Source: Bacteroidota bacterium
Lineage (GTDB): Bacteria > Bacteroidota > Ignavibacteria > Ignavibacteriales > Melioribacteraceae
NCBI GenBank assembly: GCA_023453125.1
Contig: JAEXUB010000108.1
Coordinates: forward strand, 4,694-68,693
Length of the DNA stretch: 64,000 nucleotides
Direction: 5' to 3'
This document shows positions 35,146-59,789 of the stretch, in pieces. How positions within the stretch are numbered: the first letter of the stretch is position 1; the number at the start of each line of letters is the position of its first letter. Both the position numbers and the translations under genes were made by a program. The notes below the pieces were generated by a model. It searched no databases, was not told where the DNA came from, and saw only the letters and a program-made list of their open reading frames with translations.

Positions 35146-35146
35146 T

Positions 35147-40715: not shown

Positions 40716-40718
40716 ACA

Positions 40719-41801: not shown

Positions 41802-41809
41802 TACGACCT

Positions 41810-43663: not shown

Positions 43664-43753
43664 GCAAAATATTCCGCCGATTAAAACTATGAAATTAAAA
43701 ATTTACCCTTTAAAATCAAAGACATTACCATCCCGATATTTACTTCTCTATTT

Positions 43754-46700
43754 CTATTCAGCCGCCTGGAATCTGAGGGTGAAAATTGTACCGATTCCTA
43801 TTTCGCTTTCAACAGAAATTGAACCGTTAAGCAGCTCGGTATATTTTTTTGCAATCGAAAGTCCAAGCCCGGTCCCCTGGAATTCCCTATTAATTCCTTC
43901 ACTCACCTGTCTGAATTCCTCAAATATTATTCCCAGGTTGTCTTTGTCAATTCCAATTCCGGTATCTTTAATCCTTATAAATACATTATTTCCTTCTTTA
44001 CCAGCTTCAATTGAAACCGAACCCCGTTCAGTAAATTTGATTGCGTTATTAACGAGATTCTCCAGAATTACCGCAAAGAATGATGGATCGGAGTTTATAT
44101 ACATCCCGTCGGGACACTGTAAAACCATTTCAATGTGCTTATCAATGGCAGCACCGCGGAACATTTTCTCTATTGTTTCAAGTTCATCTTTTACATCGAG
44201 CCGTTTTAAAACTATCTGATATTTCTCCGATTCTATCTTTGTGAAATTTAAAATCATATTGAGTGTATTAAGAAGCCTTTTGCCGGATCTTTTAATTCCC
44301 TTAGACATTTCGACAAGCTCTTCATCTTTCAGGATTTCCGAAAGCAGATCGGAATAGCCGAGAATTCCAATTAATGGAGTTCTAAGTTCGTGGCTCATAT
44401 TGGCAAGAAAGAGATCCTTGGTTTTATTGGCTTCTTCTGCCTTATTCTTTGCATCCATTAACTGTTCAAGAATCATTTTCCTGTCTGTTATATCTTCTTT
44501 TACGGCAATAAAATGCGTTATCCTGTTCAGGTCATCCTTAATTGCTGATATAGAAGCCGATTCCCAGTAATATGTTCCGTCCTTTTTTCTGTTCCGGAAT
44601 TGCCCTTTCCATAGTTTTCCGTCAAGAATTGTATTCCAAAGCTCCTTATATTCTTCGCTGGTTTTATTCCCCGAACTAAAAATTCTAGGATTTTTTCCAA
44701 TCACTTCATCATAAGAAAATCCGGTAATCTCCAGCAGGTAAGGATTAACATATTCAATAGTTCCTTTGACATCGGTAATAACTATTGAAACCGGGCTCTG
44801 TTCCGTGGCTTTAAATAATTTTTTTAAGTTTTCCTCATAGAGTTTCCTGGCAGTAACATCATGGGCTACTCCCTGTAAACCGCATACTTTACCGTTTTTA
44901 TAAACCGGATATTCAAAAACCTCTAAAAGTATTTTAGATCCGGATGCGTGTTTTACTTCAAGCACCATGGAGTTCTCTGTAAAGTCCCCGTTAAGGTGCC
45001 TGTGAGTCAATAATTTGGCGTTTTCATTAATTATACTATCCGTCAGGAACCAGCCCTTTTCCATAAGCCATAATTCAACCGGATAGCCTGTAATTTTTTC
45101 AACTGTAGAAGAGACGTAAGTAGTATTTGCATTCTCATCCTGCGTGTAAAAGAATAAATTGGGAGTGCCTTCAATTATAGCCCTCATCCTCTCTTCACTT
45201 CTTAGAAGCGATTCCTGAGAGGCTCTTTCTTCCGTCTGGTCCCTGAATACAAGAACAACGCCGGTAATGTTTCCGTCCTTATCTCTGATAGGGGCTCCGC
45301 TGTCTGCAATAGGTCTTCTGCTCCCGTCTTTTGAAATAAGTATTGTGTGGTTTGCAAGTCCAACTACAACCCCTTCGTTAAGAACTCTGCTTACAGGGCT
45401 TTCAACTTTATTTCCGTTATCTTCGCAGATAATGTTAAATACTTCATCAAGGTATTTACCCTTTGCCTCTTCCTCTTTCCATCCGGTCAATCCCTCGGCA
45501 ATTGGATTAATCTGCCTTATGAGTCCCGATTTATCAGTGCTGATAACTGCATCACCTATACTGTAAAGAGTTGTATGCAGTTCCTCCTTCAGCTCCCACT
45601 GCAGTTTTTCTGCTTCTTTTCTCTCGGTAATATCTCTTGTAATGTTCAGTATATGGTTTACCCCTTCGAGCTGAATGATGGAAGCAGACATTAGCCCGTA
45701 TTTTATGGACCCATCCTTCATCCGGAAGCGTGCCTCAAGGTTATTAACCTGCCCCGATTTTGAAAGCCCTTCAATCAGTTTACTCCTGGATTCGGCATCG
45801 GCCCATATGCTGATTTCTGCTGAAGTGCGCCCAACCACTTCTTCTTCGGTATAACCTGTAAGCTGTGTAAAGCCGTTGTTAACTGAAACGTATAGCCCGT
45901 CCGATAAGCGGTTAATATTAACCGAATCGGGACTTGTATAGAAAGCTGTTCTGAATTTCTGTTCGCTCTGCAGAATATTCTGTTCCGCTTTTTTTCTTTC
46001 TGTAATGTCCCTTATAACCGAAAGAAGGTATTTTTTTTCATTCAGATTTATTAAAGTGACGGAAATTGAACCGGTAAAAACAGATCCGTCTTTTTTCCTA
46101 AAATCGGACTCGTAATCATAAACCGAACCGGAACGGTTGATTGCATCAACAATTTTGTTTCTCCCCTCTTTCTCAATCCATAAACCGGCATCAACCGTAG
46201 TCCTGCCAATCAGTTCAGATGCCTTGAAGCCGAAAATCTGCTCGTTGCATTCTATAATCATTCCGGTTTCAATTTCAGTTATAAAAATAGCATCCCCGAT
46301 TGTTGCAAAAATTGACCTGTAAATCTCTTCCCGAATTTTTAATTCTTTTGCGGTTTTTTTCGAATCGGATATATCTTCAACAGTGCCCTCGTAATAAAGA
46401 GTAACACCGAATTCATCCTTAACGGATTTTGAACTTTCCCTAATAAAAAGTTCCGTACCGTCTTTTTTATACCAGACATCTTCCCAACCCCTGAGAGTCC
46501 CTTTTTCTTCAACCAGCTTTTTAAAATCAACCCTGCGGTAATTTGGTTCATACCCGTCTTCTTCCAGGTTGCGGTTAGAAAAATCCTCAAATGAATCATA
46601 ACCGAGCATTTTTATGAGGGTAGGATTTGCCAGCAGAATCCTCCCGTCGGGTGTGGTTCGGTAAAATCCGATATTATCATTTTCATAAAGGCTTCTGAAA

Positions 46701-47176
46701 GTTCTCTCTCTTTCGAGGAGCAGCTGTTCATCCTTTTTCTGTTTCGTTATATCTTCAACATTGCTTAAAATCAGGTCTTCATCATTTTGATTTATCAATA
46801 CGCCTGATACTTTTACTGTAATTGTATCCCCCCCGGCGGTAATTATCTTTCTCTCATAAGGGCCGTAAGAACCGTTTTCTTTGAGATTTTTCATCTGCTC
46901 GTTATCCGATTCATCGAAGCCTTCCGGGCTGACTCCCTTATAATTTAATTTGCGCAGCTCAGATAAATCATAACCCAGCATTTTAATTAGAGCTTTATTG
47001 GCATCAACAAATGCCCCGTCCAAACGGTTTATGGAAATTCCTATGGGAGATTTTTCGAAAAGCAGCCTATTGAATTTTTCACTCTCGCGCAGTTTGGCTA
47101 TAGTCATCTGCTGATCTTCCAGAAGATTAAGAAAAGCAGACTTGAGGTTTTCTGAATCCATGTTGTTTTTTGCCAT
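43754..47176 (-). CDS. Soluble multi-PAS sensor histidine kinase (about seven PAS/PAC, HisKA, HATPase)
   Basis: No TM segment. About seven PAS/PAC modules have recurrent DIT(E/D)RK linkers. The H-box is ANMSHELRTPLIGILGYS, with GTGLGLSIA in the HATPase region. Confidence 0.9.
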   Translation of the reverse strand: MAKNNMDSENLKSAFLNLLEDQQMTIAKLRESEKFNRLLFEKSPIGISINRLDGAFVDANKALIKMLGYDLSELRKLNYKGVSPEGFDESDNEQMKNLKENGSYGPYERKIITAGGDTITVKVSGVLINQNDEDLILSNVEDITKQKKDEQLLLERERTFRSLYENDNIGFYRTTPDGRILLANPTLIKMLGYDSFEDFSNRNLEEDGYEPNYRRVDFKKLVEEKGTLRGWEDVWYKKDGTELFIRESSKSVKDEFGVTLYYEGTVEDISDSKKTAKELKIREEIYRSIFATIGDAIFITEIETGMIIECNEQIFGFKASELIGRTTVDAGLWIEKEGRNKIVDAINRSGSVYDYESDFRKKDGSVFTGSISVTLINLNEKKYLLSVIRDITERKKAEQNILQSEQKFRTAFYTSPDSVNINRLSDGLYVSVNNGFTQLTGYTEEEVVGRTSAEISIWADAESRSKLIEGLSKSGQVNNLEARFRMKDGSIKYGLMSASIIQLEGVNHILNITRDITERKEAEKLQWELKEELHTTLYSIGDAVISTDKSGLIRQINPIAEGLTGWKEEEAKGKYLDEVFNIICEDNGNKVESPVSRVLNEGVVVGLANHTILISKDGSRRPIADSGAPIRDKDGNITGVVLVFRDQTEERASQESLLRSEERMRAIIEGTPNLFFYTQDENANTTYVSSTVEKITGYPVELWLMEKGWFLTDSIINENAKLLTHRHLNGDFTENSMVLEVKHASGSKILLEVFEYPVYKNGKVCGLQGVAHDVTARKLYEENLKKLFKATEQSPVSIVITDVKGTIEYVNPYLLEITGFSYDEVIGKNPRIFSSGNKTSEEYKELWNTILDGKLWKGQFRNRKKDGTYYWESASISAIKDDLNRITHFIAVKEDITDRKMILEQLMDAKNKAEEANKTKDLFLANMSHELRTPLIGILGYSDLLSEILKDEELVEMSKGIKRSGKRLLNTLNMILNFTKIESEKYQIVLKRLDVKDELETIEKMFRGAAIDKHIEMVLQCPDGMYINSDPSFFAVILENLVNNAIKFTERGSVSIEAGKEGNNVFIRIKDTGIGIDKDNLGIIFEEFRQVSEGINREFQGTGLGLSIAKKYTELLNGSISVESEIGIGTIFTLRFQAAE

Positions 47177-47335
47177 TATCCGCCTGTCAGAACTATATTT
47201 ACTGACTATCTCTTCCCTTACGGGAAGGAGCCGAAACTAATCATTATATTATCGCAAATAAATCCCCATTTATTAGGGATTTATTGAAAAATGCCCTTTA
47301 AAATTCTAATTACTTGGCCGGCCGGAATCGGGAAC

Positions 47336-47950
47336 TCAAATGGATTTCCCCCCAAGCTCCTTACCGCAATAGCGGCATATCTTTGCCTTGGCTTTAATTT
47401 TTTCTGCGCAGAAGGGGCATTCAATTGTGTCCCCGCTCTCCCCCGGAACAGCCGATTGATTGTTATTAGAGAAGTGGGCCGAATAAAGATTCTGTTTGTA
47501 GTTTTCCTGAACTGTGGTTAATGCCTGGCTCAATTCCTTTGGCCTTGCAATTCCGTTGTATACAGTCGCTCCCTGCTCTGCCGCGGTTTGAATTTCAACA
47601 TTTCCGAATCCAAGCATCCTTCCCAAAAAAGATTGTACATAGGTAACATTATTAATTTTATCAATCGGGCTTTCTTTCACTTTTACAGTGAATACCCCTT
47701 CTTCGTCAATTAAACGAAGGTTGGTTATTACCCAGATATTGAATTTTCTTTCGTATACTTTATAGAGCAGGTATCCAAGGGCAATTAAGATTATTATTGC
47801 GGGAATAAACAATCCAACGGACGTGGCAAATAATATATAAAAGGCTAATATGAGCAGCAAACAAGTTATAGTATATGGCATAACCAGAAAATACCAATGC
47901 TGAGTTGTTTGAAAAATTACGGCTTCTTTATCCTTTAGTGTAGTCCTCAT
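47336..47950 (-). CDS. Membrane bPH (YdbS/YdbT-like, DUF304) protein with C-terminal zinc ribbon
   Basis: Two TM helices are followed by a PH-like region (NIWVITNLRLIDEEG...GNVEIQTA). The C-terminus carries CPFCAEKIKAKAKICRYCG. Confidence 0.6.
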   Translation of the reverse strand: MRTTLKDKEAVIFQTTQHWYFLVMPYTITCLLLILAFYILFATSVGLFIPAIIILIALGYLLYKVYERKFNIWVITNLRLIDEEGVFTVKVKESPIDKINNVTYVQSFLGRMLGFGNVEIQTAAEQGATVYNGIARPKELSQALTTVQENYKQNLYSAHFSNNNQSAVPGESGDTIECPFCAEKIKAKAKICRYCGKELGGKSI

Positions 47951-48082
47951 ACTCTCCTCAATATGATTCTTTCCATTCTTAATTTAATGAAGATGAATAC
48001 AAATATCTATATTTTCCCCCGAGCCCACCATCCAAAAATGAGATTAATCTCATTGCACTACTAATTCTGAGTAAAAATTAAT

Positions 48083-48111
48083 TTGACAGGTCTATATTAT
48101 ATTGATATATT
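48083..48111 (+). promoter_or_regulatory. Candidate sigma-70-type promoter of the rex-hyd operon
   Basis: TTGACA (48083..48088), a 17-nt spacer, then TATATT (48106..48111). This is about 30 nt upstream of the rex ATG at 48142. Confidence 0.5.
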
Positions 48112-48141
48112 TATATCGATAAATAATTAGCGGTATAAACC

Positions 48142-48801
48142 ATGAAAAACGACGAAAAAAGCATAGTCAGGGTTCCAGAACCCACATTAAGAAGACTTCC
48201 AAAGTATATTAACTTACTTGAAAAGTTAAAAAGAGAATCTGTCCAGTTTGTTTCAAGCAATCTGATATCGGAAGAACTGGGGCTGGATTCGATTCAGGTA
48301 AGAAAAGATTTGGCATTAACCGGAATTTCGGGTAAACCAAAACTCGGATTTAATCTTGGCGAACTCTTGCAGGCTTTATACCACACCCTTAACTGGGATA
48401 ATTCCAACGATGCTTTCCTGGCAGGAGCCGGAAGTCTTGGCTCTGCCCTTTTGGGTTATAAAACTTTCAAAGACTACGGGCTGAATATTATTGCCGCATT
48501 TGATGTCAATCCATCCCTAACCGGGACGAAGATTAATGAGACGGAGATTCTTCCGATTGATAAACTTGCTGAAATGATAACCCGGATGCATGTTAATATC
48601 GGGGTAATATGCGTACCTGCCGATGAAGCCCAGCAAATAGCTGACTTAATGGTCCAGGGGGGAATAAAGGCAATATGGAATTTTGCCCCGGTTCACCTTA
48701 AAGTACCCGCAGGCATTATTGTCGAGAATGCGCAACTCTCACAATCGCTTGGGGTTCTTACACATAAATTAGCCGAAAGACTAAAACCAAATACAAAATA
48801 A
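48142..48801 (+). CDS. rex: Redox-sensing transcriptional repressor Rex
   Basis: The N-terminal winged helix has PEPTLRRLPKYINLL. The Rossmann block is LAGAGSLGSALLGY. At 219 aa the length is typical for Rex. Confidence 0.9.
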   Translation: MKNDEKSIVRVPEPTLRRLPKYINLLEKLKRESVQFVSSNLISEELGLDSIQVRKDLALTGISGKPKLGFNLGELLQALYHTLNWDNSNDAFLAGAGSLGSALLGYKTFKDYGLNIIAAFDVNPSLTGTKINETEILPIDKLAEMITRMHVNIGVICVPADEAQQIADLMVQGGIKAIWNFAPVHLKVPAGIIVENAQLSQSLGVLTHKLAERLKPNTK

Positions 48802-48824
48802 AAGCTATAAACTACGGAGATAAT

Positions 48825-49346
48825 ATGAACAGAAATGATGTTAGTGATTCCGGAATGGCGAGGAAGTTTGACAGAGTATGTGCTATACTTGAACAGAACA
48901 ATTACTCCCCTTCAAAACTTATTCCCATTCTTCAGGCAATTCAGGAAGAATACCGATACCTGCCCGAGAAAATTCTCACTTTCGTTGCTACTTCTCTCGG
49001 GATTCCCCCGGCAAAGGTTTACGGCGTTGCCACATTCTATTCCCATTTTGCACTTAAAGCCAAAGGAAAATATGTAATTAAAATATGCGACGGCACAGCA
49101 TGCCATGTGCGCAATTCTATTCCTATTGTTGAAGCACTAAGAAAACGGCTTGAATTATCGGAAACAAAAAACACTACTGATGATATGATGTTTACAATCG
49201 AGACTGTTTCCTGCCTCGGTGCCTGCGGCCTGGCCCCCGTTGTAGTAATTAATGACGACGTTCATTCTCTTATGACCCCCGAAAAGGCTCTTGTTGTGAT
49301 TGAAAATATTGTAAAAGAAGAGGAGAGTGAATATGCACACAATTAA
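48825..49346 (+). CDS. hydC: [FeFe] hydrogenase subunit HydC (NuoE-like, [2Fe-2S])
   Basis: NuoE/24-kDa pattern: LIPILQAIQEEYRYLP, CDGTACHV, SCLGACGLAP. Confidence 0.88.
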   Translation: MNRNDVSDSGMARKFDRVCAILEQNNYSPSKLIPILQAIQEEYRYLPEKILTFVATSLGIPPAKVYGVATFYSHFALKAKGKYVIKICDGTACHVRNSIPIVEALRKRLELSETKNTTDDMMFTIETVSCLGACGLAPVVVINDDVHSLMTPEKALVVIENIVKEEESEYAHN

Positions 49347-51228
49347 CCTGGAACAAATAAAAAACGATTATCAGTCCGCCGTTAAGGTGACTAAGAGAAG
49401 GATAATAATATGCGCCGGAACTGGCTGCGTTGCCAACGGTTCACTTAAAATATTTTCCGAATTCAGCCGCCAGATTGAGCTTAAGGGACTGAATCATCTT
49501 GTCGAAATCTCACTTAAGGAAGAGCCTGTTGATCATATACATCTTTCGGGAAGCGGATGTCAGGGCTTCTGCCAGATGGGACCCCTTGTTTCTATTGAAC
49601 CGGACAGCATACTCTACGTAAGAGTGAAAATTGAAGATGTTAAAAGAATTGTCGAAGAGACTCTGTGCAGCAACAAGGTAATTGAAGAACTCCTGTATAC
49701 CGACCCGACAAACGGGAGGAAATGCAAAGGGACAAATGAAATTCCTTTCTATAAAAGACAAAGCAGAATTGTTCTGAATAACTGCGGCAGAATAAATCCA
49801 GAAGATATAAACGAATATATCGCCCTGAGCGGATACAGCGCCGCACAGAGAGCATATCTGGAGATGAGCCCTTTGGATATCTGCGAAGAAATTGCATTCA
49901 GCGGATTGCGCGGCAGAGGGGGCGGCGGATTTCCTACAGGAAAAAAATGGGAACTTACCAGAATTCAGAAATCGGAAAAGAAATTTGTTATATGCAACGG
50001 GGATGAAGGGGACCCGGGGGCTTTTATGGACAGAAGCGTTATGGAGGGGAACCCCCATTCCGTTATTGAAGGAATGATGATAGCGGCCCGGGCAATAGGA
50101 GCCGATGAAGGATATATCTACGTAAGAGCGGAATATCCGCTCGCAGTAAAGCGTGTAAGAAAAGCAGTTGAACAAGCCGAAAAGCTTAACCTTCTGGGGA
50201 ATAATATCTTCGGATCGGGGCTCAATTTCACCATTCAGGTTATGGAAGGCGCCGGCGCATTTGTATGCGGCGAGGAGACTGCTTTAATGGCTTCCATAAT
50301 GGGTGAAAGAGGAATGCCTAATCCAAAACCTCCTTTCCCTGCTCAATCGGGATTATTCGAAAAACCGACCGTTATAAATAATGTTGAGACGCTTAGCACA
50401 GTTCCTTTGATTATTCTTAAAGGGGCAAACAGCTTTTCATCACTTGGCACTCAGAAGTCCGCCGGCACAAAAACTTTTGCGCTCACCGGGCACGTAGCTA
50501 ATACCGGGCTTATTGAAGTACCATTCGGAACTACTCTGAGAGAGATTATTTACAATATCGGCGGAGGCATTCTGGATGAAAAAGGAAACATTACTCACGA
50601 AGGATTTAAATCAGTCCAGATTGGAGGGCCTTCCGGCGGATGCCTGACCGAAGAGCATCTCGATATGCCTCTCGATTTCGATTCACTAACCGGAATTGGA
50701 GCGATGGTTGGTTCGGGCGGGCTTGTTGTAATGAACAAACAGACTTGCATGGTTTCAATTGCGCGCTACTTTATGCAGTTCACTCAGAATGAATCGTGCG
50801 GCAAATGCGTACTCTGCCGCGAAGGAACTAAACAGATGCTTGCACTTCTTGATGACATTATCGAAGGAAGAGGTTCCGAAGAAACGATTATGCTTCTGGA
50901 GGACCTGGCACACGCTGTTAAGAAAGGCTCACTGTGCGGGCTCGGAAAGACTGCGCCGAATCCGGTTCTTTCAACACTCCATCATTTCCGCGAAGAATAT
51001 GATGCTCACGTCCTGCAGCACAGATGCCCATCCAAAAAGTGCAAAGCACTAATGGCTTACGAAATTGACCCGGTTAAGTGCAAAGGATGCGGAGTATGCC
51101 TTAAGAAATGCCCGGTAGATGCTATAAGCGGTAACAGGAAAGAACCCCATTATATAAATGAACAACTATGCATTAAGTGCGGCGCATGCATTGAAGCCTG
51201 CAGATTGAATGCGGTTATAGGAGGATAA
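49333..51228 (+). CDS. hydB: [FeFe] hydrogenase subunit HydB (NuoF-like NAD(H)/FMN subunit with extra Fe-S domains)
   Basis: N-terminal thioredoxin-like 2Fe-2S (CAGTGC...CQGFCQMGP). The NuoF blocks are GLRGRGGGGFPTGKKW, NGDEGDPGAF and ESCGKCVLCREG. The C-terminus has 2x[4Fe-4S] (CKGCGVCLKKCP, CIKCGACIEAC). ATG 49333 is preceded by GGAG. Confidence 0.9.
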   Translation: MHTINLEQIKNDYQSAVKVTKRRIIICAGTGCVANGSLKIFSEFSRQIELKGLNHLVEISLKEEPVDHIHLSGSGCQGFCQMGPLVSIEPDSILYVRVKIEDVKRIVEETLCSNKVIEELLYTDPTNGRKCKGTNEIPFYKRQSRIVLNNCGRINPEDINEYIALSGYSAAQRAYLEMSPLDICEEIAFSGLRGRGGGGFPTGKKWELTRIQKSEKKFVICNGDEGDPGAFMDRSVMEGNPHSVIEGMMIAARAIGADEGYIYVRAEYPLAVKRVRKAVEQAEKLNLLGNNIFGSGLNFTIQVMEGAGAFVCGEETALMASIMGERGMPNPKPPFPAQSGLFEKPTVINNVETLSTVPLIILKGANSFSSLGTQKSAGTKTFALTGHVANTGLIEVPFGTTLREIIYNIGGGILDEKGNITHEGFKSVQIGGPSGGCLTEEHLDMPLDFDSLTGIGAMVGSGGLVVMNKQTCMVSIARYFMQFTQNESCGKCVLCREGTKQMLALLDDIIEGRGSEETIMLLEDLAHAVKKGSLCGLGKTAPNPVLSTLHHFREEYDAHVLQHRCPSKKCKALMAYEIDPVKCKGCGVCLKKCPVDAISGNRKEPHYINEQLCIKCGACIEACRLNAVIGG

Positions 51229-51229
51229 A

Positions 51230-53260
51230 GTGAAAAATAAAACGATGATGATTAATGGCAGAGAGGTTTCATTTAAAGATGAAAGAAACCTCCTTGAAGT
51301 AATTAGAAAAGCAAACATAGAAATTCCCACTTTCTGCTACCATTCCGAACTTAGCACTTACGGGGCATGCCGAATGTGCATTGTTGATATTGAAGGAAGA
51401 GGCATAATTACATCCTGTACTACCATTCCCGAAGAAGGAATGGTGGTTAAAACACATACAAAAGAAGTAAGAGACGTTAGAAAAATTGCCCTGGAACTGC
51501 TTCTTGCAAATCACGAGCAGAAATGCACTTCGTGCATTAAAAGCGCTAACTGCAAACTTCAGGATCTGGCTAATAAATTAGGAATTGACAAGGTAAGATA
51601 TAAGAAAACAGAGAACCATATTCCGCCGGATTTATCGTCAGACGCTCTTATGAGAGATCCGAATAAATGCATTCTATGCGGCGACTGCGTAAGGGCATGC
51701 TACGAAATACAGGGAATCGGCGCAATCGACTTTACCAACAGAGGCTCTCAGGTTACTGTATCGCCGGCTTTCGGCAAAGATCTTGCATCGGTTGAATGCG
51801 TTGACTGCGGCCAGTGCGCGCGCGTATGCCCTACGGGAGCCATTACTCCCAAATTCGATATTGAAAGAGTCTGGAAGGAAATTGATAATCCGAAGAAAAC
51901 AGTTGTTGCACAGATAGCACCAGCCGTGAGAGTCGCTATTGGAGAAATGTTCGGATTAAAGCCGGGAACCCAGTCCATAGGGCAAATAGTGGCCGCGCTA
52001 AAAATGTTAGGTTTCGATAGAGTGTTCGATACTTCATTCGCTGCAGATTTAACGGTACTTGAAGAGACATCGGAATTTCTTGAAAGGAAATCTAACAGCG
52101 AAAAACTTCCTTTATTTACATCCTGCTGCCCCGGCTGGGTTAAGTTTGCCGAACAGCACTATTCGGAGTTTCTGCCTAATCTATCAACCTGCAAGTCGCC
52201 GCAGCAGATGTTCGGCGCCGTAGCAAAAGAAATTCTTCCTGAACAGCTCAATGTAAAAAAAGAAAACCTGGTTGTAGTTTCCATTATGCCCTGTACTGCG
52301 AAGAAGAGCGAAGCAGCACGCCCTGAATTTTCCGAAGGGGATATTAAGGAAGTTGACATTGTTTTGACCACGCAGGAACTTGCCTCTATGATTAAACAGG
52401 CAGGCATCCGTTTTGAAAATTTGACTCCTGAATCTCTCGACCTCCCTATGGGATTTAAAACAGGGGCCGGGGTTATCTTCGGTAACAGCGGCGGCGTGAG
52501 CGAAGCGGTTTTGAGATACGCTTACGAAAAGGTAAACGAAGTTAAACTTGATTCTTTTGAATTTACCGAAACCAGAGGGGAGGATTCAATCCGCGAGCTG
52601 GAAGTAAATTTGAACGGCACTAAGGTAAAACTCGCAATTGTAAGCGGTCTCAAAAATGCGAAAAATCTGCTCGATAAGATCCGTAAAAAAGAGGCCGCGT
52701 ATGATATTATTGAGGTTATGGCCTGCCCCGGCGGATGCATTGGAGGTGCCGGACAGCCTTATATTTTCGAGGCAAATGCAAAAGAAGAAAGAACAAAAGG
52801 GCTATATGACTCGGATAAAACGCTCCAGCTTCATAAATCGCAGGAAAATCCATACATAGCAAGTTTATATAAGACCCTTCTCGTTGAGCCGGGAAGTCAC
52901 AAGGCACACAAATTGCTTCATACTAATTACAAAAACAGAAAGCGCATATTCGAATCGGAATTAAGCTTTATTGGATGCCAGGATTCCCATAAATTGGAAA
53001 TCAAAGTATGCGTGGGTACCAACTGTTATTTGAAAAACTCTCAAAAACTGATATCGCGTCTTTTGAAATATGTTGATGAGAAAGGGTTAAAAAACGCGGT
53101 GGATGTAAGCGCAACTTTCTGTATGGAAAAATGCGGAGAGGGACCCAATGTACTAATCGGAGGGGAGCATATTCCCCAGTGCACATTTGAAAAAGCAATT
53201 GATGCGCTTAACAGGAAAATGACTCCCGATTTGAAAGCAATAAAAATGGAAGCAAAATAA
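51230..53260 (+). CDS. hydA: [FeFe] hydrogenase catalytic subunit HydA (group A3-type, with C-terminal NuoE-like 2Fe-2S domain)
   Basis: H-cluster motifs are intact: TSCCPGW, MPCTAKKSEA, EVMACPGGCIGGAGQP. The N-terminus has 2Fe-2S and 4Fe-4S domains. The C-terminus carries CVGTNC...CMEKCGEGP. GTG 51230 lies 5 nt after AGGAGGA. Confidence 0.92.
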   Translation: MKNKTMMINGREVSFKDERNLLEVIRKANIEIPTFCYHSELSTYGACRMCIVDIEGRGIITSCTTIPEEGMVVKTHTKEVRDVRKIALELLLANHEQKCTSCIKSANCKLQDLANKLGIDKVRYKKTENHIPPDLSSDALMRDPNKCILCGDCVRACYEIQGIGAIDFTNRGSQVTVSPAFGKDLASVECVDCGQCARVCPTGAITPKFDIERVWKEIDNPKKTVVAQIAPAVRVAIGEMFGLKPGTQSIGQIVAALKMLGFDRVFDTSFAADLTVLEETSEFLERKSNSEKLPLFTSCCPGWVKFAEQHYSEFLPNLSTCKSPQQMFGAVAKEILPEQLNVKKENLVVVSIMPCTAKKSEAARPEFSEGDIKEVDIVLTTQELASMIKQAGIRFENLTPESLDLPMGFKTGAGVIFGNSGGVSEAVLRYAYEKVNEVKLDSFEFTETRGEDSIRELEVNLNGTKVKLAIVSGLKNAKNLLDKIRKKEAAYDIIEVMACPGGCIGGAGQPYIFEANAKEERTKGLYDSDKTLQLHKSQENPYIASLYKTLLVEPGSHKAHKLLHTNYKNRKRIFESELSFIGCQDSHKLEIKVCVGTNCYLKNSQKLISRLLKYVDEKGLKNAVDVSATFCMEKCGEGPNVLIGGEHIPQCTFEKAIDALNRKMTPDLKAIKMEAK

Positions 53261-53263
53261 AAA

Positions 53264-55036
53264 ATGTCCCCGAAATCATTCGACAGACAGATAATATTTA
53301 CAAACAAGGCACGGTGCCGCGACTGTTACAGATGCTTGAGAAACTGTCCGGTAAACGCTATAAAGCTGAAAGATCATCAGGCATCTGTTGATCCTGAAAG
53401 ATGCATCTTATGCGGTACTTGCTTAAAGGAATGCCCGCAGGAAGCAAAACAGTTCAGACGCGACCTCGACCTGGTAAAATCCCTAATCGGGGAAAACGAA
53501 AGGGTTGCGGTTAGCATTGCCCCCTCATTTCCCGCGTTATTTGAAGATTGGCAGTCTGAAAGAATTCCTTCTGTATTGAGAAAACTCGGATTCGATTATG
53601 TAAGTGAAACCGCAGAGGCCGCTTTCTATGTCGCGGGAGAAACATGTTCTCATTATTTGAATGATAAGAGTATTTCCTGTTATGCAACCGCATGTCCGGC
53701 GTTTGTAAATTACATCGAAAAATTTCAGCCGGCGCACGTAAAAAATCTCGCGCCTGTTGTATCCCCGATGATTGCGCACGCAAAGAGGCTAAAGAAAAAA
53801 CTTGCCCCCGATGCAAAAGTGGTTTTCATTGGCCCGTGCCTTGCAAAAAAAGGGGAGGCTGAAAGACCTGAATATTACGGATTGGTTGACGGAGTATTAA
53901 CTTTTACTGAATTGTTGGAATGGATAGAAGAAGAAAAAATCGACTTTAAGATGCTTGAAGCAGGTGATTTCGATGACAAAGTGGCAGGCGACTCCCGTCT
54001 TTTCCCACTGGCGGGAGGCCTGTCAAAGACAGGAGACCTTAATCCGGATAATCTTAACAGCAATGTTTTCTCGATTACCGGAGTGAATGAAATCTCAGAC
54101 ATAATAGATTCGCGCGCCAATTCAAAATCGCGCGTTCTGATTGAGCCCCTCGTTTGCGCTTCGGGATGCGTTAACGGCCCGGGGATGCCCAAGCATCAGA
54201 GCATTTTCGCAAATAAGGAAAATGTAATTAATTATGCCCTAAAGAGAGAATACGAAATGAACGCACCGGCAAATGATGTGAGCCTGAGAACAACATTTTC
54301 CAATTCTTCTGCTATATCAGAACCCGAATTCCCGGAAGAGGAAATAAGAAGAATACTCGAGCAGACAGGAAAGCTTTCGGAAGAAAATCAGCTTAACTGC
54401 GGAGCCTGCGGCTATTCATCATGCATTGAAAACGCAAGGGCAATTCTTATGGGAATGGCAGATAACGACATGTGCATCCCCCATATGAGAAGGCTTGCCG
54501 AGCAGAGAACAGACCGCATAATTGAAACAAGCCCCAACGGCATTGTGATTTTAGATTCGGAAATGTGTATACTTCATATGAATCCCGCATTTAAAAAATT
54601 CTTCAAATGCACTAACTCCATTATCGGGAAGAGAATCTCATACCTTATGGACCCGGAGCCTTTTATACGGCTTACCGGTGATGAGGAGGAAAAAATTGAG
54701 CTGATTTTAAAACATGAGAATTATCATATTACATGCCATCAGCTTCTTTACAAATTAAAAGAAGAGAAACAGTATGTCGGAATATTTGTTAACATCACCA
54801 AGAATATGGCTGATGCAGAAAAACTGGATTTATTACGAGAAAAAACAATCCACAAAGCAGAAGAGTTGCTCCAGCACCAGCTCGAAATGGCCCAGCAGCT
54901 CGCAAAACTCCTCGGTGAAAATACAGCCCGCGGAGAAGAGTTAGTTGAAAATCTTCTAACCCTTACACAGGATGAAAAAACAAAAAAGACCTCTAACAAG
55001 AATAACTGGCTATGGGATATCTACACCTCGAAGTAA
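53264..55036 (+). CDS. hydS: Sensory [FeFe] hydrogenase-like protein HydS (group C): ferredoxin + degenerate H-domain + Cx2Cx4Cx16C + PAS
   Basis: There are 2x[4Fe-4S] motifs (CRDCYRCLRNCP, CILCGTCLKECP). The H-cluster motifs are altered as in sensory enzymes: ATACPAF (proton-relay Cys to Ala), IGPCLAKKGEA (Met to Gly) and EPLVCASGCVNGPGMP. These are followed by CGACGYSSC-x16-C, then a PAS (NGIVILDSEMCILHMNPAFKKFF) and a coiled-coil tail. Confidence 0.85.
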   Translation: MSPKSFDRQIIFTNKARCRDCYRCLRNCPVNAIKLKDHQASVDPERCILCGTCLKECPQEAKQFRRDLDLVKSLIGENERVAVSIAPSFPALFEDWQSERIPSVLRKLGFDYVSETAEAAFYVAGETCSHYLNDKSISCYATACPAFVNYIEKFQPAHVKNLAPVVSPMIAHAKRLKKKLAPDAKVVFIGPCLAKKGEAERPEYYGLVDGVLTFTELLEWIEEEKIDFKMLEAGDFDDKVAGDSRLFPLAGGLSKTGDLNPDNLNSNVFSITGVNEISDIIDSRANSKSRVLIEPLVCASGCVNGPGMPKHQSIFANKENVINYALKREYEMNAPANDVSLRTTFSNSSAISEPEFPEEEIRRILEQTGKLSEENQLNCGACGYSSCIENARAILMGMADNDMCIPHMRRLAEQRTDRIIETSPNGIVILDSEMCILHMNPAFKKFFKCTNSIIGKRISYLMDPEPFIRLTGDEEEKIELILKHENYHITCHQLLYKLKEEKQYVGIFVNITKNMADAEKLDLLREKTIHKAEELLQHQLEMAQQLAKLLGENTARGEELVENLLTLTQDEKTKKTSNKNNWLWDIYTSK

Positions 55037-56160
55037 TAACAGAACAGATAGCTAAGAAGCCGGAACATCCAAGCGGCGACGTTATAAGCACAGAAAGGGA
55101 TAATAATTCCATTATTCACATTCTGTGCGACGGCGCCGGCTCGGGCATTAAAGCCAATATTACGGCAACAATGTATGTCTCGAGAATAAAAGAATTAATC
55201 AGACGCGGTTTTTCAAAGCGAGAAGCATTTGCCAAAATTGTAAACTCGGTTGAAGAAAGCAAAAAGAAGGAACTCCCCTGTGCTTTCTTTACTCTGGTGC
55301 GGATTCTCAACGACGGCGTTGCTTCTATTCTGATGTATGATATGCCCGAACCTCTTTTTGTATGTCAGCGTTATTCAACCCCGTTAAAGAGCAGCAGCCA
55401 GATGCTGTTCGGAGGGCTTGTACGGGAATCTAACTGTTCTCTTAATCTGGGAGAAGGAATTCTGATATTCAGCGATGGTATTACACAGGCAGGCATTGGA
55501 AAAGGAATAAATAACGGATGGGGCATTGAAGGTTTAAATAAATTTGTGAATGAATGCCTCCGCGGCGGTGCAAATATAACTGAGCTGCCTAAATTAATCA
55601 TAAGCGAAACGAAGAAGCTATGGAAACATAAATGCGAGGATGACTGCTCCGTTTCCCTTATCTACTGCCGTAAAGGAAGAGTAATTAATATCCTCAGCGG
55701 CCCCCCTGCCAATCCAGACGATGACCATGCAGTTGTGAACAAATTCCTTGGTATGGATGGATTAAAAATTATCTGCGGGGCAACAACGGCAAAAATTGCC
55801 GCCCGGGTAATGAACAAACAACTCGAAATTAATGATGAATTTGCAAGCATAATTTCTCCGCCGAATTATGAGATTGAAGGAATCGGGCTCGTTACCGAAG
55901 GAGCAGTAACATTAAACCAGCTTTATAATGTAATGGGAGAAGACCTTTCCCTTCTTGAAAAAGGGAGCCCTGTAACAGCACTTTCGGCCTGGCTCAATGT
56001 TGCTGACAGAATTAACTTCTTTGTCGGGACTGCCGAGAATCCTGCCGGCTCAGACATAAGTTTTAAACAAAGCGGCATTCTTCTGCGCAAAAAAATCATT
56101 AAGCTTATTATTGAGAAATTGAGAGAGGAAGGAAAATTTGTTTATCTGGAAGAATTTTAG
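55012..56160 (+). CDS. PP2C/SpoIIE-type serine phosphatase with unassigned ~160-aa C-terminal domain
   Basis: The N-terminal ~215 aa carry HPSGDVIS...ILCDGAGSGIKAN...IFSDGITQAG...DDCSVSLI (PP2C/SpoIIE-like metal-binding Asp pattern). The gene overlaps hydS by 25 nt in another frame. Confidence 0.7.
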   Translation: MGYLHLEVITEQIAKKPEHPSGDVISTERDNNSIIHILCDGAGSGIKANITATMYVSRIKELIRRGFSKREAFAKIVNSVEESKKKELPCAFFTLVRILNDGVASILMYDMPEPLFVCQRYSTPLKSSSQMLFGGLVRESNCSLNLGEGILIFSDGITQAGIGKGINNGWGIEGLNKFVNECLRGGANITELPKLIISETKKLWKHKCEDDCSVSLIYCRKGRVINILSGPPANPDDDHAVVNKFLGMDGLKIICGATTAKIAARVMNKQLEINDEFASIISPPNYEIEGIGLVTEGAVTLNQLYNVMGEDLSLLEKGSPVTALSAWLNVADRINFFVGTAENPAGSDISFKQSGILLRKKIIKLIIEKLREEGKFVYLEEF

Positions 56161-56190
56161 CTTTCTTCATAAGATATTACTAAAGCATAC

Positions 56191-56220
56191 AAAAAAGTCC
56201 GGCCTATAGCCGGACTTTTA
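56191..56220. terminator. Bidirectional rho-independent terminator between the convergent PP2C and REC-CheW genes
   Basis: A6, then GTCCGGC, a CTATA loop, GCCGGAC, then T4. The stem is flanked by an A-run and a T-run, so it can act on either strand. Confidence 0.8.
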
Positions 56221-56223
56221 ATT

Positions 56224-58167
56224 TCAGCCGTTTAGCTTATGTAACGGGGTTGCAAGGACTTCAACGTCAAGAAGTATATAAACGGAATCTTCGAGCCTTA
56301 CCACCGCCTTAATAAAATTGGCTTTCTGCTCCTGCCCGAACGAAGGGGCCATATCAATATCATCTGCTTTTACATCACATACAACATCAACCTCGTCAAC
56401 TATAAAGCCGACTCTCATTTTAACGCCGTCCAATTCCTCCTCAAGAATTACGATTCTGGTCTTTGACCCATATTCTGTATCCGGCATACCAATCTTAAGC
56501 CTAAGGTCAATAACAGGAACCACTGTTCCGCGCAGGTTTATTACCCCCCTTACAAAATCGGGAGTGTTAGGCACTTTTGTTATCGGAACAAGTTTAATAA
56601 TCTCAATAATCTTTAGAATTTCAATTCCGAATTTTTCTTTTCCTAAAGAGAATCTCAGATATTTCCCTTCCATATTGAGTAGTTCTTTAGTCTTAATATC
56701 TCCAAAGGCTTCCTCGCTTCTTCCGGCAAGTTTTTCAATATTCTGGGCAATATACTGCTCGCTTACCCTGCTTTTTGCAGCAGCCTTATCCTGATCCGAA
56801 CAGGCTTCATCCGCAAAGCGGCTGTCGACAAATTCATTCAGATTAATTATTGAACCAATACCCATTTTATCGTGCATATAATGCTGAATAAAATTGAGGT
56901 CTTCTTTAACCGGATAAAGGTTATTTGTCTTAATCCCCTTCGGCTCAGTAAGAACATTTTTTAGAATAGGTACTTTAAGCCCGAGTTCTTTTTTAGGGTC
57001 GAGGAATTCAACCGCAATTTCAGCTGCGTATCCCGGTTTCTGTTCAATTATTTTTCCCGCCTGAACAAGGTATTTAACAAATTCGTTAACAGCCTGAGGA
57101 TAATTATTTACAAAATCCTCCTGAACGGCGAGAACACAGCAGGGATGGTTTTCCCAAATTTCACTCGAAAGGAACTGCAGCTCTGCATTTCCCTGAGCAA
57201 TGGATTTTGTTCCGAGAGGCTCTGCAACCATAAATCCGCTTGCATCCGGATTTCCGGCCATAAATTCCCCCATTTTAATCGGCGCAACGACCTCGAACGG
57301 AACATCCACACCGCTCTGCCCGGTTACTCCCGGATTCAAACCCTGATTCTTAAAATATAAATGTCCGAGCATATTATGTATTGACATAGTGTGAGGGATA
57401 TAGAATGATTTATTTTTAAAATACTCAATCCCCTTTGTATCGTTTCCCATTTTATTTTTAACGCAGATGCTTCCGTTCCTGTGCGCAAAAAGAATCATCT
57501 TTAAGGGCACGCCGTAATTAAAAAGATCCATAGCCAGCGGTGCAAGAATAAATGCCGCATCTGCAGTTCCCTGCTCAAGCGATTTTGCAACGGCGTTCCA
57601 GCTTGGGAGGCATTCGGTTTCAAGTTCAAAATGTTTTGTTGTAATTTCATTCCTTTTAATAAGGTTTTTAAGAACGCCGAGTGTAAGATGGTCTGTGATT
57701 TGAATATGAATAGCCTTTATAATTACCTTACCGGAAGGGGCGATTCTTGATTCGCGTGAAATCGGCTTTTTCTCTTCTCCTTTTATTCCAAACGCCTCAT
57801 TTATTTTCTCATTAAGCTCATCTTTATTGAACGGCTTTGATATAAAACTGCTTACGCCGGCTTCAATAGCCTTCTCTACCTCTTTTTTCTCTCCTCTTCC
57901 GGTAGCCATTAAAAAAGGAATTTTACCCGTGCCCGTATTTTCCCTTACAAAACGGAGCAACTCAAAGCCATCCATAACCGGCATATTCCAGTCGCTTATA
58001 ATCAAATCATAATTCGGGTCCTTCTTAAGAATTTCTACCGCCTCACTCCCATGCTCTGCTTCGGTAACATTATTAAAGTCGAGCGAATTTAATGTTTTGA
58101 TTTCCATCTTCCTCATAACGGAAGCGTCTTCTACCAAAAGAATTTTCATATTCTTATTGAGTGCCAT
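56224..58167 (-). CDS. REC / NrtA-NasS-like (NitT/TauT-type) solute-binding domain / CheW fusion protein
   Basis: aa ~7-125 form a CheY-like REC (MKILLVED, IISDWNMPVMDG, SKPF). aa ~145-470 are NrtA-like (GFMVAEPLGTKSIAQG, ENHPCCVLAV). aa ~497-640 are CheW (VPNTPDFVRGVINLRGTVVPVIDLR). There is no signal peptide or TM segment. The start is either 58167 or Met7 (58149). Confidence 0.8.
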   Translation of the reverse strand: MALNKNMKILLVEDASVMRKMEIKTLNSLDFNNVTEAEHGSEAVEILKKDPNYDLIISDWNMPVMDGFELLRFVRENTGTGKIPFLMATGRGEKKEVEKAIEAGVSSFISKPFNKDELNEKINEAFGIKGEEKKPISRESRIAPSGKVIIKAIHIQITDHLTLGVLKNLIKRNEITTKHFELETECLPSWNAVAKSLEQGTADAAFILAPLAMDLFNYGVPLKMILFAHRNGSICVKNKMGNDTKGIEYFKNKSFYIPHTMSIHNMLGHLYFKNQGLNPGVTGQSGVDVPFEVVAPIKMGEFMAGNPDASGFMVAEPLGTKSIAQGNAELQFLSSEIWENHPCCVLAVQEDFVNNYPQAVNEFVKYLVQAGKIIEQKPGYAAEIAVEFLDPKKELGLKVPILKNVLTEPKGIKTNNLYPVKEDLNFIQHYMHDKMGIGSIINLNEFVDSRFADEACSDQDKAAAKSRVSEQYIAQNIEKLAGRSEEAFGDIKTKELLNMEGKYLRFSLGKEKFGIEILKIIEIIKLVPITKVPNTPDFVRGVINLRGTVVPVIDLRLKIGMPDTEYGSKTRIVILEEELDGVKMRVGFIVDEVDVVCDVKADDIDMAPSFGQEQKANFIKAVVRLEDSVYILLDVEVLATPLHKLNG

Positions 58168-58344
58168 TTTAACCCGCTTATATAAATGTTGTAATTATTG
58201 AATTGATTATGAACATATCTCATCAAGAATATTATCGTCAGAAAATTCATTTTTTTTAACTGAATTGGAGGAATAATTGGTTAAAAAATCCCTTAAAAAA
58301 GGGTAAAAATCAACTTTTACGGTTTCTTTATTCCCACCAATAAA

Positions 58345-58376
58345 TAAAAAAGGGACCCCTTCCCGGAGGTCCCTTA
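58345..58376 (-). terminator. Rho-independent terminator after pepP
   Basis: On the minus strand, AAGGGACC / GGTCCCTT (8-bp stem, 10-nt loop) is followed by T6. It lies about 20 nt downstream of the stop at 58398. Confidence 0.7.
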
Positions 58377-58397
58377 AAAAACTGGCAATTGGATTGG

Positions 58398-59789
58398 CTA
58401 AAATGCTTTTTCCCGTTCCGCTTCAATCTTTTCAACAGTCTTCGGCAATTCTTTTCCCAACAGGCGGGCTCCATCGGAAGTAATAAGATAATCTTCTTCG
58501 TTGCGGCATCCGCCAAAGTTTTTATACTCTTCAAGACGGTCGTAATTTAGAAACTCCATGAATTTCTTTTCACTGCGCCACTTGTCCATAAGCTCGGGAA
58601 TAAAATATATACCCGGTTCAATGGTAATTACAAATCCGGGCTGAAGTTCCCTTCCGAGCCTGAGTGATTTCAGACCGAACAGAGTGCTCTTCGCTTCCCC
58701 GCCGTAACCTACATACACCTCTCCCAGGTTTTCCATATCGTGCACATCCAGTCCCATCATATGTCCGAGTCCGCACGGAAAGAACATTGCATGTGCCCCT
58801 TCGTGAACAGCATCATCAAGGTTCCCTTTCATAAATCCCATTCCCTTCATTCCTTCTGCAATGAATCGGCAGGTGGAAAGATGAATGTCGCGGAATTTTA
58901 CTCCCGGCTTTAAGAGAGAAACTGCGTGATTATGGGCGCCTAAAGAGATATTATATACTTCCTTCTGCCTCTCGGTAAATTTTTTGCCGACGGGGAAAGT
59001 GCTTGAAAGGTCTCCGCAGTAATGGGATTCAACTTCCGCTCCCGAATCCAGGAGAAACATCTGCCCCTCTTCAAGAGTATTCCCGTAATAATGATTATGG
59101 AGAGTCTGTCCGTTCTTTGTTGCTATTATAGGGAATGAAAGATTCCCGCCTCCCGCCAATGCAGTCTGATGTACTTTTGCCATTACTTCATTTTCAGTCA
59201 TACCCGGCCTTGCATAGCGCATTGCTGCCAGATGCATCTCTGCGCTTAATACTGCAGCTTTGTTAATCTCTTCTACTTCCTCTTCCGTCTTTATATTCCT
59301 CTGGGAAACGACGCACTTAACAAGCTCAACCGAATAATTTTTATAAACTTCTGCAGGCGATATTCCCAGCCATTGATGCAGCTTAATAACATTATCCCCT
59401 CTGTATTGAGGCAGATAATGAATTTTTCTTCCTTTGGATAAAGCAGCGGCGATAAATGAGTCCGCTTCTTTTACAGGAGCGGAATTCTCAATACCGGCAA
59501 GTGACGAGCGGTATTTGATTGTGGGCTGAGGTCCCATCCACACTATATCGTCAATTGTGTAATCATTGCCGAAGATATAATCTTTTCCTTCATCGGCGTC
59601 TATTATTCCAACCAGCCCCGGAAAATCAATGCCGAAATAATAAAGAAAAGAACTGTCCTGCCGGTAATGGTATGTGTTATCGGTATAATTCATAGGGCTC
59701 TCATCATTCCCCGGAATAAGCACAATACCCGTTTTAATAAGCTCTCTTAATTTTTTTCTTCTTTCAACATAGGTTGATGCTTTAAACAT
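58398..59789 (-). CDS. pepP: Xaa-Pro aminopeptidase (M24B)
   Basis: Creatinase-like N-domain plus pita-bread metal ligand blocks (DSGAEVESHYCGDLSSTF, GLGHMMGLDVHD, TIEPGIY, RNEED). Confidence 0.85.
   Translation of the reverse strand: MFKASTYVERRKKLRELIKTGIVLIPGNDESPMNYTDNTYHYRQDSSFLYYFGIDFPGLVGIIDADEGKDYIFGNDYTIDDIVWMGPQPTIKYRSSLAGIENSAPVKEADSFIAAALSKGRKIHYLPQYRGDNVIKLHQWLGISPAEVYKNYSVELVKCVVSQRNIKTEEEVEEINKAAVLSAEMHLAAMRYARPGMTENEVMAKVHQTALAGGGNLSFPIIATKNGQTLHNHYYGNTLEEGQMFLLDSGAEVESHYCGDLSSTFPVGKKFTERQKEVYNISLGAHNHAVSLLKPGVKFRDIHLSTCRFIAEGMKGMGFMKGNLDDAVHEGAHAMFFPCGLGHMMGLDVHDMENLGEVYVGYGGEAKSTLFGLKSLRLGRELQPGFVITIEPGIYFIPELMDKWRSEKKFMEFLNYDRLEEYKNFGGCRNEEDYLITSDGARLLGKELPKTVEKIEAEREKAF

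Follow-up and report, generated by a model that had tools for sequence, protein, structure and literature searches.

Fermenters are thought to match their H2 production to ambient H2 by means of sensory [FeFe] hydrogenases, and such tuning governs syntrophy, rumen methane and biofuel yields. To our knowledge, no signalling partner of these enzymes has been demonstrated. The question of where such a sensor sends its signal is raised by a 64,000-nucleotide stretch of DNA from a member of the Melioribacteraceae (GenBank assembly GCA_023453125.1, contig JAEXUB010000108.1, positions 4,694 to 68,693 of the forward strand), referred to here as the window, in which six genes on the + strand (48142-56160) encode the repressor Rex, the three subunits of an NADH-linked [FeFe] hydrogenase (HydC, HydB and HydA), a putative sensory hydrogenase (HydS) and a PP2C phosphatase. 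A preliminary description of this DNA had proposed that the six genes form one operon, joining an NADH/NAD+ sensor and a putative H2 sensor to the enzyme that they presumably control. Comparison with related loci indicates that the window probably holds a typical rex-hydC-hydB-hydA-hydS-PP2C cassette, forming one transcription unit and working by the mechanism set out below.

The locus itself is unexceptional, and its interest comes from family-wide features found in the comparison. A phosphatase-linked class of sensory hydrogenases (PMC5037454), the proposal that Rex and HydS jointly control a bifurcating hydrogenase (PMC10084766, citing Zheng 2014 and Greening 2019) and the position of rex at the head of hydABC (PMC5317091) were already known. 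Three results of the comparison narrow the problem: this type of HydS has one specific two-domain phosphatase as its invariant partner, neither a kinase nor a STAS protein travels with the HydS-PP2C pair, and the cassette Rex appears to use an operator of its own.

A conserved six-gene cassette

The open reading frames of rex (48142-48801), hydC (48825-49346), hydB (from a GTG at 49327 or an ATG at 49333 to 51228), hydA (51230-53260), hydS (53264-55036) and the phosphatase gene (55012-56160) follow one another with gaps of 23, -20 (GTG start of hydB) or -14 (ATG start), 1, 3 and -25 nucleotides, the end of hydS and the start of the phosphatase gene overlapping by 25 nucleotides. The tight packing described earlier was thus reproduced, with the second gap at -20 if the GTG start of hydB is used. 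A predicted sigma-70-like promoter (48083-48111, + strand) lies within the 191-bp intergenic region upstream of rex and consists of TTGACA (48083-48088), a 17-nucleotide spacer, an upstream TG and TATATT (48106-48111). With 11 of 12 consensus matches, it was the top site in a scan of 12 kb (46500-58500), in keeping with the single good promoter previously assigned, though promoter-like sites as a class were not enriched. A perfect 18-bp palindrome, AATGAGATT followed by AATCTCATT, is present at 48037-48054, upstream of the -35 hexamer by about 30 bp. At the other end, between the operon and a convergent gene (56224-58167), a predicted terminator hairpin for either strand (AAAAGTCCGGCC-TAT-AGCCGGACTTTT, 56193-56219) has folding energies of -17.6 kcal/mol (+ strand, z -6.5) and -18.0 kcal/mol (- strand, z -4.8), with a U-run 3′ of it on each strand, which agrees with the bidirectional terminator proposed before. 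This hairpin was not called by a consensus terminator scan. An Rfam search of 47000-58500 matched no RNA element.

To place this layout among its relatives, one genome per species was scanned, which yielded 80 loci from many phyla (related loci and metagenome contigs are numbered with an L below), and gene order was established by tblastn and open-reading-frame analysis. In 67 of 73 loci, the PP2C gene is immediately preceded by hydS; 22 loci share the identical -25-nucleotide overlap. The full order rex-hydC-hydB-hydA-hydS-PP2C was found in 39 of the 53 loci with enough upstream DNA, spanning Ignavibacteriota, Bacteroidota, Planctomycetota, Armatimonadota, Omnitrophota, Firmicutes, and Syntrophorhabdus with other 'delta' lineages, indicating that the window carries a typical copy of a conserved and widespread cassette. 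The rarity implied by the preliminary description therefore does not hold, since the layout is common across phyla and its class already has a name (HydDB C3). Both the spacing of the genes and their conserved order point to 48142-56160 as one transcription unit.

Transcription of hydS and the phosphatase gene as a unit of their own, from a promoter inside hydA and merely adjacent to hydABC, is distinctly unlikely. Such an arrangement would fit the loci in which the pair stands apart from hydABC (divergent in L009, behind hydEFG in L004, alone in L018 and L036), and a promoter-like site with 10 of 12 matches does occur inside hydA (52364-52392), but internal matches of this kind appear at the chance rate. 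Moreover, the hydA-hydS gap is 3 nucleotides with no noteworthy terminator-like hairpin between the genes, and in most loci hydA is still followed by hydS.

Several loci depart from the common layout. In L009 (7382-10019), rex-hydCBA is divergent from hydS-PP2C, with an array of the octamers described below in the shared intergenic region. In L072 (9261-11098), rex and the array are directly upstream of the phosphatase gene, with no hydS. In L003 (7593-8248), hydA and hydS are separated by an inserted PhdYeFM/PIN toxin-antitoxin pair. Two Riflebacteria/Ozemobacteraceae loci, L019 and L024 (3620-6490 and 8280-11143), carry two tandem hydS-PP2C pairs, the second of which is only 26-31% identical to the window pair.

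A catalytic hydrogenase beside a putative sensor

The HydC product is a NuoE-like [2Fe-2S] subunit (2Fe-2S_thioredx, PF01257, E 2e-49), and HydB is a NuoF-like flavoprotein (Complex1_51K, NADH_4Fe-4S and Fer4) whose N-terminus carries a Trx-like 2Fe-2S domain and which also has an FMN/NADH site, an NADH_4Fe-4S domain and two C-terminal [4Fe-4S] motifs. HydB matches its bifurcating counterpart 8a6t_B over the full length (E 1e-228) and also matches 7p5h_B. HydA is an M3-type [FeFe] hydrogenase with Fer2_4, NADH-G_4Fe-4S_3, Fer4, Fe_hyd_lg_C, Fe_hyd_SSU and a C-terminal 2Fe-2S_thioredx domain, and it scores 782.9 against a cut-off of 765 for NCBIfam NF040763 ('NADH-dependent [FeFe] hydrogenase, group A6'). 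Its matches among Protein Data Bank (PDB) entries include 8a6t_A (E 2e-178) and 7p5h_A, aligned over residues 7-662. Compared with the reference motifs TSCCPxW, MPCxxKxxE and ExMACxxGCxxGxGQP, HydA keeps all three H-cluster motifs, as claimed beforehand: TSCCPGW (residue 297; 52118-52138), MPCTAKK (residue 353; 52286-52306) and EVMACPGGC (residue 495) within EVMACPGGCIGGAGQP (52712-52759). HydA and HydB have their nearest solved relatives in the electron-bifurcating HydABC complexes 8a6t, 7p5h and 7q4v, matched full-length, so that the A3 bifurcating-type layout with NuoF/NuoE-like subunits was borne out by both Pfam domains and structures. Domains and motifs mark HydABC as an [FeFe] hydrogenase of the Bfu type, linked to NADH and ferredoxin and with the composition of the group A3/A6 trimer.

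HydS has a different make-up, with two Fer4 domains, Fe_hyd_lg_C, the FeS domain PF04060 and a PAS domain in Pfam. Two N-terminal [4Fe-4S] motifs (53315-53437) precede ATACPAF at the TSCCP position (residue 141; 53684-53704), GPCLAKK at the MPC position (residue 190; 53831-53851) and the third H-cluster motif, EPLVCASGC (residue 294) within EPLVCASGCVNGPGMP (54143-54190). These are followed by Cx2Cx4Cx16C (residues 379-404; 54398-54475), the PAS domain (about 54506-54799; PAS_8, E 3e-07, residues 416-474) and a helical tail (54800-55033). The cubane of the H-cluster retains its four Cys ligands, and Ala stands in for Cys299, Gly for Met353 and Leu for Met497. Group C (M2f) enzymes are described as having Ala at position 299, Gly at 353, the Cys motif near the C-terminus and a PAS domain (PMC8163306); at position 353, group D enzymes have Ser or Thr and HydS of Thermotoga maritima (TmHydS) has Gly (PMC8163306). 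The sensory substitutions, Cys motif and PAS domain reported for this gene were thus all recovered. As read from these motifs, HydS is an H-cluster protein without the proton-transfer Cys and with a C-terminal FeS motif and PAS domain, and it is of the putative sensory group C (M2f) type, H2 sensing being putative for the whole class (PMC8924675, PMC13104023).

HydS falls below the cut-off of every catalytic NCBIfam model (best 206.7 against 450), and so its product is not classed as catalytic at the sequence level. That HydS is instead a slow catalytic or redox-buffering hydrogenase, with the PAS domain and phosphatase answering another cue such as redox state, is very unlikely. The intact H-cluster ligands, the slow H2 turnover of characterised HydS enzymes (PMC8163306) and the word putative that accompanies the sensory role throughout the literature (PMC8924675) would fit this view, but the loss of the proton-pathway Cys, the near-obligate linkage to a signalling phosphatase (67/73 loci) and the regulatory phenotypes of hfsB (PMC5707799) argue for a sensor. 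The transmission of HydS-type signals, described beforehand as unresolved, still is so in a 2026 study, which asks for HydS interaction partners to be identified (PMC13104023). Our literature search found no paper that pairs 'HydS' with 'PP2C'.

A two-domain phosphatase as the invariant partner

As judged by profile alignment and structure prediction, the product of the last gene combines an intact PP2C with an alpha/beta domain that is uncharacterised. The PP2C domain is of the SpoIIE/RsbU type (PF07228, residues 1-221; 55012-55674), and its metal-binding residues D23, D40, D155 and D210/D211 align with the GD, DGxGxG, SDG and EDD motifs of SpoIIE, being invariant or at least 90% conserved in 121 homologues; the metal-binding Asp residues of the phosphatase downstream of hydS thus hold on proper alignment. 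An AlphaFold model of the protein (predicted local distance difference test score, pLDDT, 90.6; predicted template modelling score, pTM, 0.80) superposes on SpoIIE, the RsbU domain of Rv1364c and RsbX in Foldseek (5mqh, E 4e-13). Relatives of the phosphatase number 503 at E ≤ 1e-3, the best with 93% identity, and those with names come from Melioribacteraceae, Ignavibacteria, Armatimonadota and Phycisphaerae. These matches point to Ignavibacteriota as the probable origin of the window, in agreement with the type IX secretion sorting domain and the polysaccharide-degradation genes that it carries elsewhere.

The whole model returned only PP2C domains from Foldseek, and the C-terminal domain (residues 222-382; 55675-56160), predicted to have a Rossmann-like alpha/beta fold, was therefore modelled alone (160 residues, pLDDT 91.8). 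Against the PDB, Foldseek then gave nothing significant (best E 0.03, template modelling score ≤ 0.40, generic Rossmann-like folds), and the domain had no PDB sequence match and no Pfam family even at E ≤ 10. Kinship with phosphoglycerate kinase or UbiX was considered and rejected, as the resemblance is weak (template modelling score ≤ 0.4). Searched as a profile against 1.84 billion proteins, the domain was found in 904 representative clusters; in the best 150 of these 904, it nearly always occupies about residues 222-382 of proteins of about 380 residues, and shorter matches look like fragments. From this placement, the domain seems nearly confined to the PP2C fusion. Its conserved positions include GPP, D238, CG(A/G)TTA with a near-invariant Thr259, and LVTEGAVTLNQ.

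What this phosphatase acts on was sought in the neighbourhood. In a scan of all non-overlapping open reading frames of the 64-kb window, no STAS, RsbW-like, Hanks-kinase or sigma-factor gene was found, nor was hydEFG, so the reported lack of a partner-switching kinase, STAS/anti-sigma antagonist and sigma factor extends to the whole window. Nor does a STAS, sigma or kinase gene recur among the open reading frames within 10 kb of 85 related loci. The lack of a linked kinase or substrate gene is thus a trait of the family, not a quirk of this locus.

Under classical partner switching, the protein would be an RsbU/RsbP/SpoIIE-like phosphatase whose STAS substrate, anti-sigma kinase and sigma factor are encoded elsewhere in the genome, an alternative that we regard as possible but doubtful. 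The closest structures, SpoIIE, the RsbU domain of Rv1364c and RsbX, are consistent with it, and HydS (PAS plus helical tail) together with PP2C may be likened to Bacillus subtilis RsbP, which has a PAS-coiled-coil-PP2C layout. Against this, the 10 kb on either side of the related loci show no recurrence of such genes; this genome was inspected over 64 kb.

Less probable, and on balance unlikely, is a target inside the cassette (Rex, a HydABC subunit, HydS or the phosphatase's own C-terminal domain), which would make the cassette a self-contained module joining H2 and NADH signals locally. The lack of kinase, STAS or sigma genes in the window and of any that recurs at the 85 loci, the near-confinement of the C-terminal domain to this fusion (best 150 of 904) and its near-invariant Thr, set in a Gly-rich strand-to-helix turn (CG[AG]TTA), point in this direction. 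Yet a phosphatase needs a kinase somewhere and the cassette has none, and no Ser or Thr specific to this Rex clade is invariant. Furthermore, hydS-PP2C stands without a nearby rex or hydABC in several loci (L018, L036, L078), indicating that these genes are not its obligatory neighbours.

Rex and a candidate operator array

Rex carries Put_DNA-bind_N and CoA_binding domains (Pfam), scores 267.9 against a cut-off of 130 for the equivalog model NCBIfam NF003994, and matches 3wg9 in the PDB (E 3e-48). Its winged-helix QVRKDL (residues 52-57), altered wing GKPKLGF (residues 64-70) and Rossmann GAGSLG (residues 95-100) motifs, with these scores, are those of a bona fide Rex-family NAD(H)-binding repressor. 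No canonical Rex box (TTGTGAA-N4-TTCACAA) was found within 3 mismatches near the operon promoter. A probable operator at 48100-48135 is instead made of three octamers at a 14-bp period, TATTGATA (48100), TATCGATA (48114) and TAGCGGTA (48128), and reaches into the -10 hexamer and over the presumed start of transcription. Exact TATCGATA occurs in the window only at 48114.

The array was compared across 1.29 Mb of related loci, including 42 that hold rex, with ≤ 1 mismatch allowed. The pair TATCGATA-N6-TATCGATA gave 30 matches, every one ≤ 300 bp upstream of rex, in 24 of the 42 rex-holding loci; there were none elsewhere in the 1.29 Mb and none in 20 shuffles, and looser copies of the array are found in most of the other loci. 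Arrays of 2-4 octamers just upstream of rex occur in most related loci, across phyla (for example L001 2992-3041, L008 2684-2719, L030 3040-3075 and L050 939-988), standing where a canonical Rex box would be. When the 22-bp unit is set in the operator frame of the T. maritima Rex co-crystal (PMC8836258), G5, A8, T15 and C18, contacted there by Arg48 and Lys49, are kept in the same dyad frame as in the canonical box, and the unit differs where the wing residues Arg60 and Gly61 make contact. The Rex clade of the cassette likewise keeps Arg-Lys (QVRKDL) and, by wing alignment, has Pro-Lys at the positions of Arg60 and Gly61. In three Bacteroidales/Lentimicrobiaceae loci, Rex has Thr or Val at the position of Arg48 (QVTKD/QVVKD), the TATCGATA array is absent, and tandem AAAGAAA-N4-TTTCTTT palindromes are present (L020 about 2880-2960, L045 about 2500-2570, L046 about 2930-2960). 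The change in residue and the change in palindrome look like co-variation of repressor and operator, and this co-variation, though a single lineage event, makes Rex the most likely binder of the TATCGATA array, an assignment that draws on conservation.

Other observations concern the surroundings of such arrays. In the Phycisphaerae loci L030 (2985), L037 (2984) and L049 (2871), a near-canonical TTGTGAA-N4-TCACAA lies about 55 bp upstream of the TATCGATA array, which suggests input from a second, canonical Rex. In the metagenome contig L094 (1098-3557), the array lies between rex-hydC-hydB and an opposite-strand DRTGG-like small protein gene, followed by a distant HydS-like gene (29% identity). 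Triple arrays also precede a conserved 322-residue acidic protein on five phage- or plasmid-like gut-metagenome contigs (L108, L109, L114, L121, L128) and an iron alcohol dehydrogenase gene in L096 and L100, and they occur within long 14-bp tandem repeats in L086, L099 and L137. A regulon search with the triple array in metagenomes brought out no candidate phosphatase target. The crystallised T. maritima Rex operator (TM0201) was considered as a hydS operator and ruled out, as TM0201 is a different hydrogenase.

Proposed mechanism

In the mechanism that we favour, while NADH is scarce relative to NAD+, Rex would sit on the TATCGATA array overlapping the -10 hexamer and repress its own operon, and NADH would release it. 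The H2-forming enzyme, which would dispose of NADH and reduced ferredoxin, would then be made on demand because NADH releases the repressor, with HydABC acting as a confurcating hydrogenase in an NADH-derepressed, autoregulated operon. HydS would bind H2 but turn it over slowly, and a conformational signal would pass through its FeS cluster, PAS domain and helical C-terminus to the phosphatase, a coupling inferred from the conservation of the pair. The conserved gene overlap suggests translational coupling, and so HydS and PP2C are probably made in fixed proportion. The phosphatase would dephosphorylate a Ser/Thr phosphoprotein encoded outside the cassette, its C-terminal domain probably binding the target or a small ligand, and hydrogen metabolism would in this way be adjusted to the H2 partial pressure.

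Several points weigh against this proposal. Sequence is the source for transcription, binding by Rex, sensing of H2 and the activity of the phosphatase alike. The promoter scan found 25 promoter-like sites, as against 25.2 expected from shuffles, and sigma-70 consensus rules may not fully hold for an organism of the Fibrobacteres-Chlorobi-Bacteroidetes (FCB) group. When metagenomes were scanned for exact copies of the three-octamer array, 63 stretches came back, about 15 of them beside rex; the rest lie in 14-bp tandem repeats, in phage- or plasmid-like contexts and, in 2 loci, at iron alcohol dehydrogenase genes. Since the array also occurs in contigs without rex, the motif alone is no proof of Rex binding. 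NADH-only trimeric relatives of bifurcating HydABC exist, and the two types are not separable from sequence (PMC8924675). In TamHydS, a group D enzyme, H2 does not reduce the C-terminal cluster (PMC13104023), which leaves the path that a signal would take within HydS uncertain. Finally, clustering of the open reading frames within 10 kb on either side of the 85 related loci gave no family beyond the six genes in more than 7 loci.

A bolder version would make the phosphatase of about 380 residues a self-contained device, its C-terminal domain binding a nucleotide or phospho-ligand or serving as phospho-acceptor, with its output on the cassette Rex clade that would read the TATCGATA array. We consider this highly improbable; if true, H2 pressure and the NADH/NAD+ ratio would be integrated at one promoter. 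For experiments, the comparison offers concrete reagents in HydS with its PP2C, in the orphan domain at the phosphatase C-terminus and in a candidate operator of 36 bp.

Neighbouring genes

The convergent neighbour (56224-58167, - strand) encodes an unusual fusion of a response-regulator receiver, an NMT1-like solute-binding domain and CheW. Upstream, a PAS-rich signalling block (35135-47176) encodes a 1537-residue CHASE8/PAS hybrid kinase, a receiver (REC)-PAS protein, a REC-kinase, and PAS kinases of 617 and 1140 residues; these genes are not conserved neighbours in the related loci. A polysaccharide-utilisation region (1128-29886) holds GH28, GH88, arabinofuranosidase and L-arabinose catabolism genes, an SSF transporter and proteins sorted by the type IX secretion system, and a multihaem cytochrome gene lies at 12240-13316.

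Comparison with known systems

The rex-hydABC operon of Caldithrix abyssi (Cabys_3675-3679), also from an FCB-group bacterium, likewise has rex first, encodes a bifurcating hydrogenase and is predicted to be autoregulated (PMC5317091). It has a near-canonical Rex box, cTGTGAATCAATTCACAt, whereas the window has the TATCGATA array.

The phosphatase shares its PP2C subfamily fold and metal site with B. subtilis RsbP, RsbU and SpoIIE, and control by an attached or partner sensor, as in those proteins, is a plausible analogy. Unlike them, it has no STAS substrate or RsbW-like kinase encoded nearby, its sensor HydS is a separate polypeptide, and it has an extra C-terminal domain without known relatives.

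According to published descriptions, TmHydS has the same two N-terminal [4Fe-4S] motifs, lost Cys299, Met353 to Gly substitution, Cx2Cx4Cx16C motif and PAS domain, and its type of gene also lies beside a trimeric bifurcating hydrogenase (PMC8163306, PMC10055695, PMC3561251); position 497 is Ser in TmHydS and Leu in the window HydS. Sensory hydrogenases adjoin bifurcating ones in the genomes surveyed, T. maritima among them, and there the sensory gene is mostly upstream of hydABC, often with a histidine or serine kinase between (PMC3561251). In the window, by contrast, hydS is downstream of hydA and followed by PP2C without a kinase, and rex heads the operon.

The closest class is HydDB [FeFe] group C3, 'phosphatase-linked (putative)', in which a sensory hydrogenase is transcribed with a Ser/Thr phosphatase (PMC5037454); the window HydS would belong there by its gene linkage and its motifs, the two features on which the assignment is based. 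The HydS cluster of R. albus, where HydS was described with a phosphatase subunit (PMC6776011), and Thermoanaerobacterium hfsABCD, whose hfsB and hfsC have regulatory phenotypes (PMC5707799, PMC11837493), similarly combine a PAS sensory hydrogenase with a Ser/Thr phosphatase (HfsC) and place both with the hydrogenase presumed to be regulated (PMC6776011, PMC5707799, PMC11837493). Their partner is the ferredoxin-only HydA2/HfsD, whereas that of the window is a trimeric NADH-linked enzyme, and the R. albus cluster is additionally tied to an alcohol dehydrogenase and a kinase, unlike the window. The Firmicute locus L068, with the order hydS-PP2C-hydrogenase, encodes the same two-domain phosphatase as the window.

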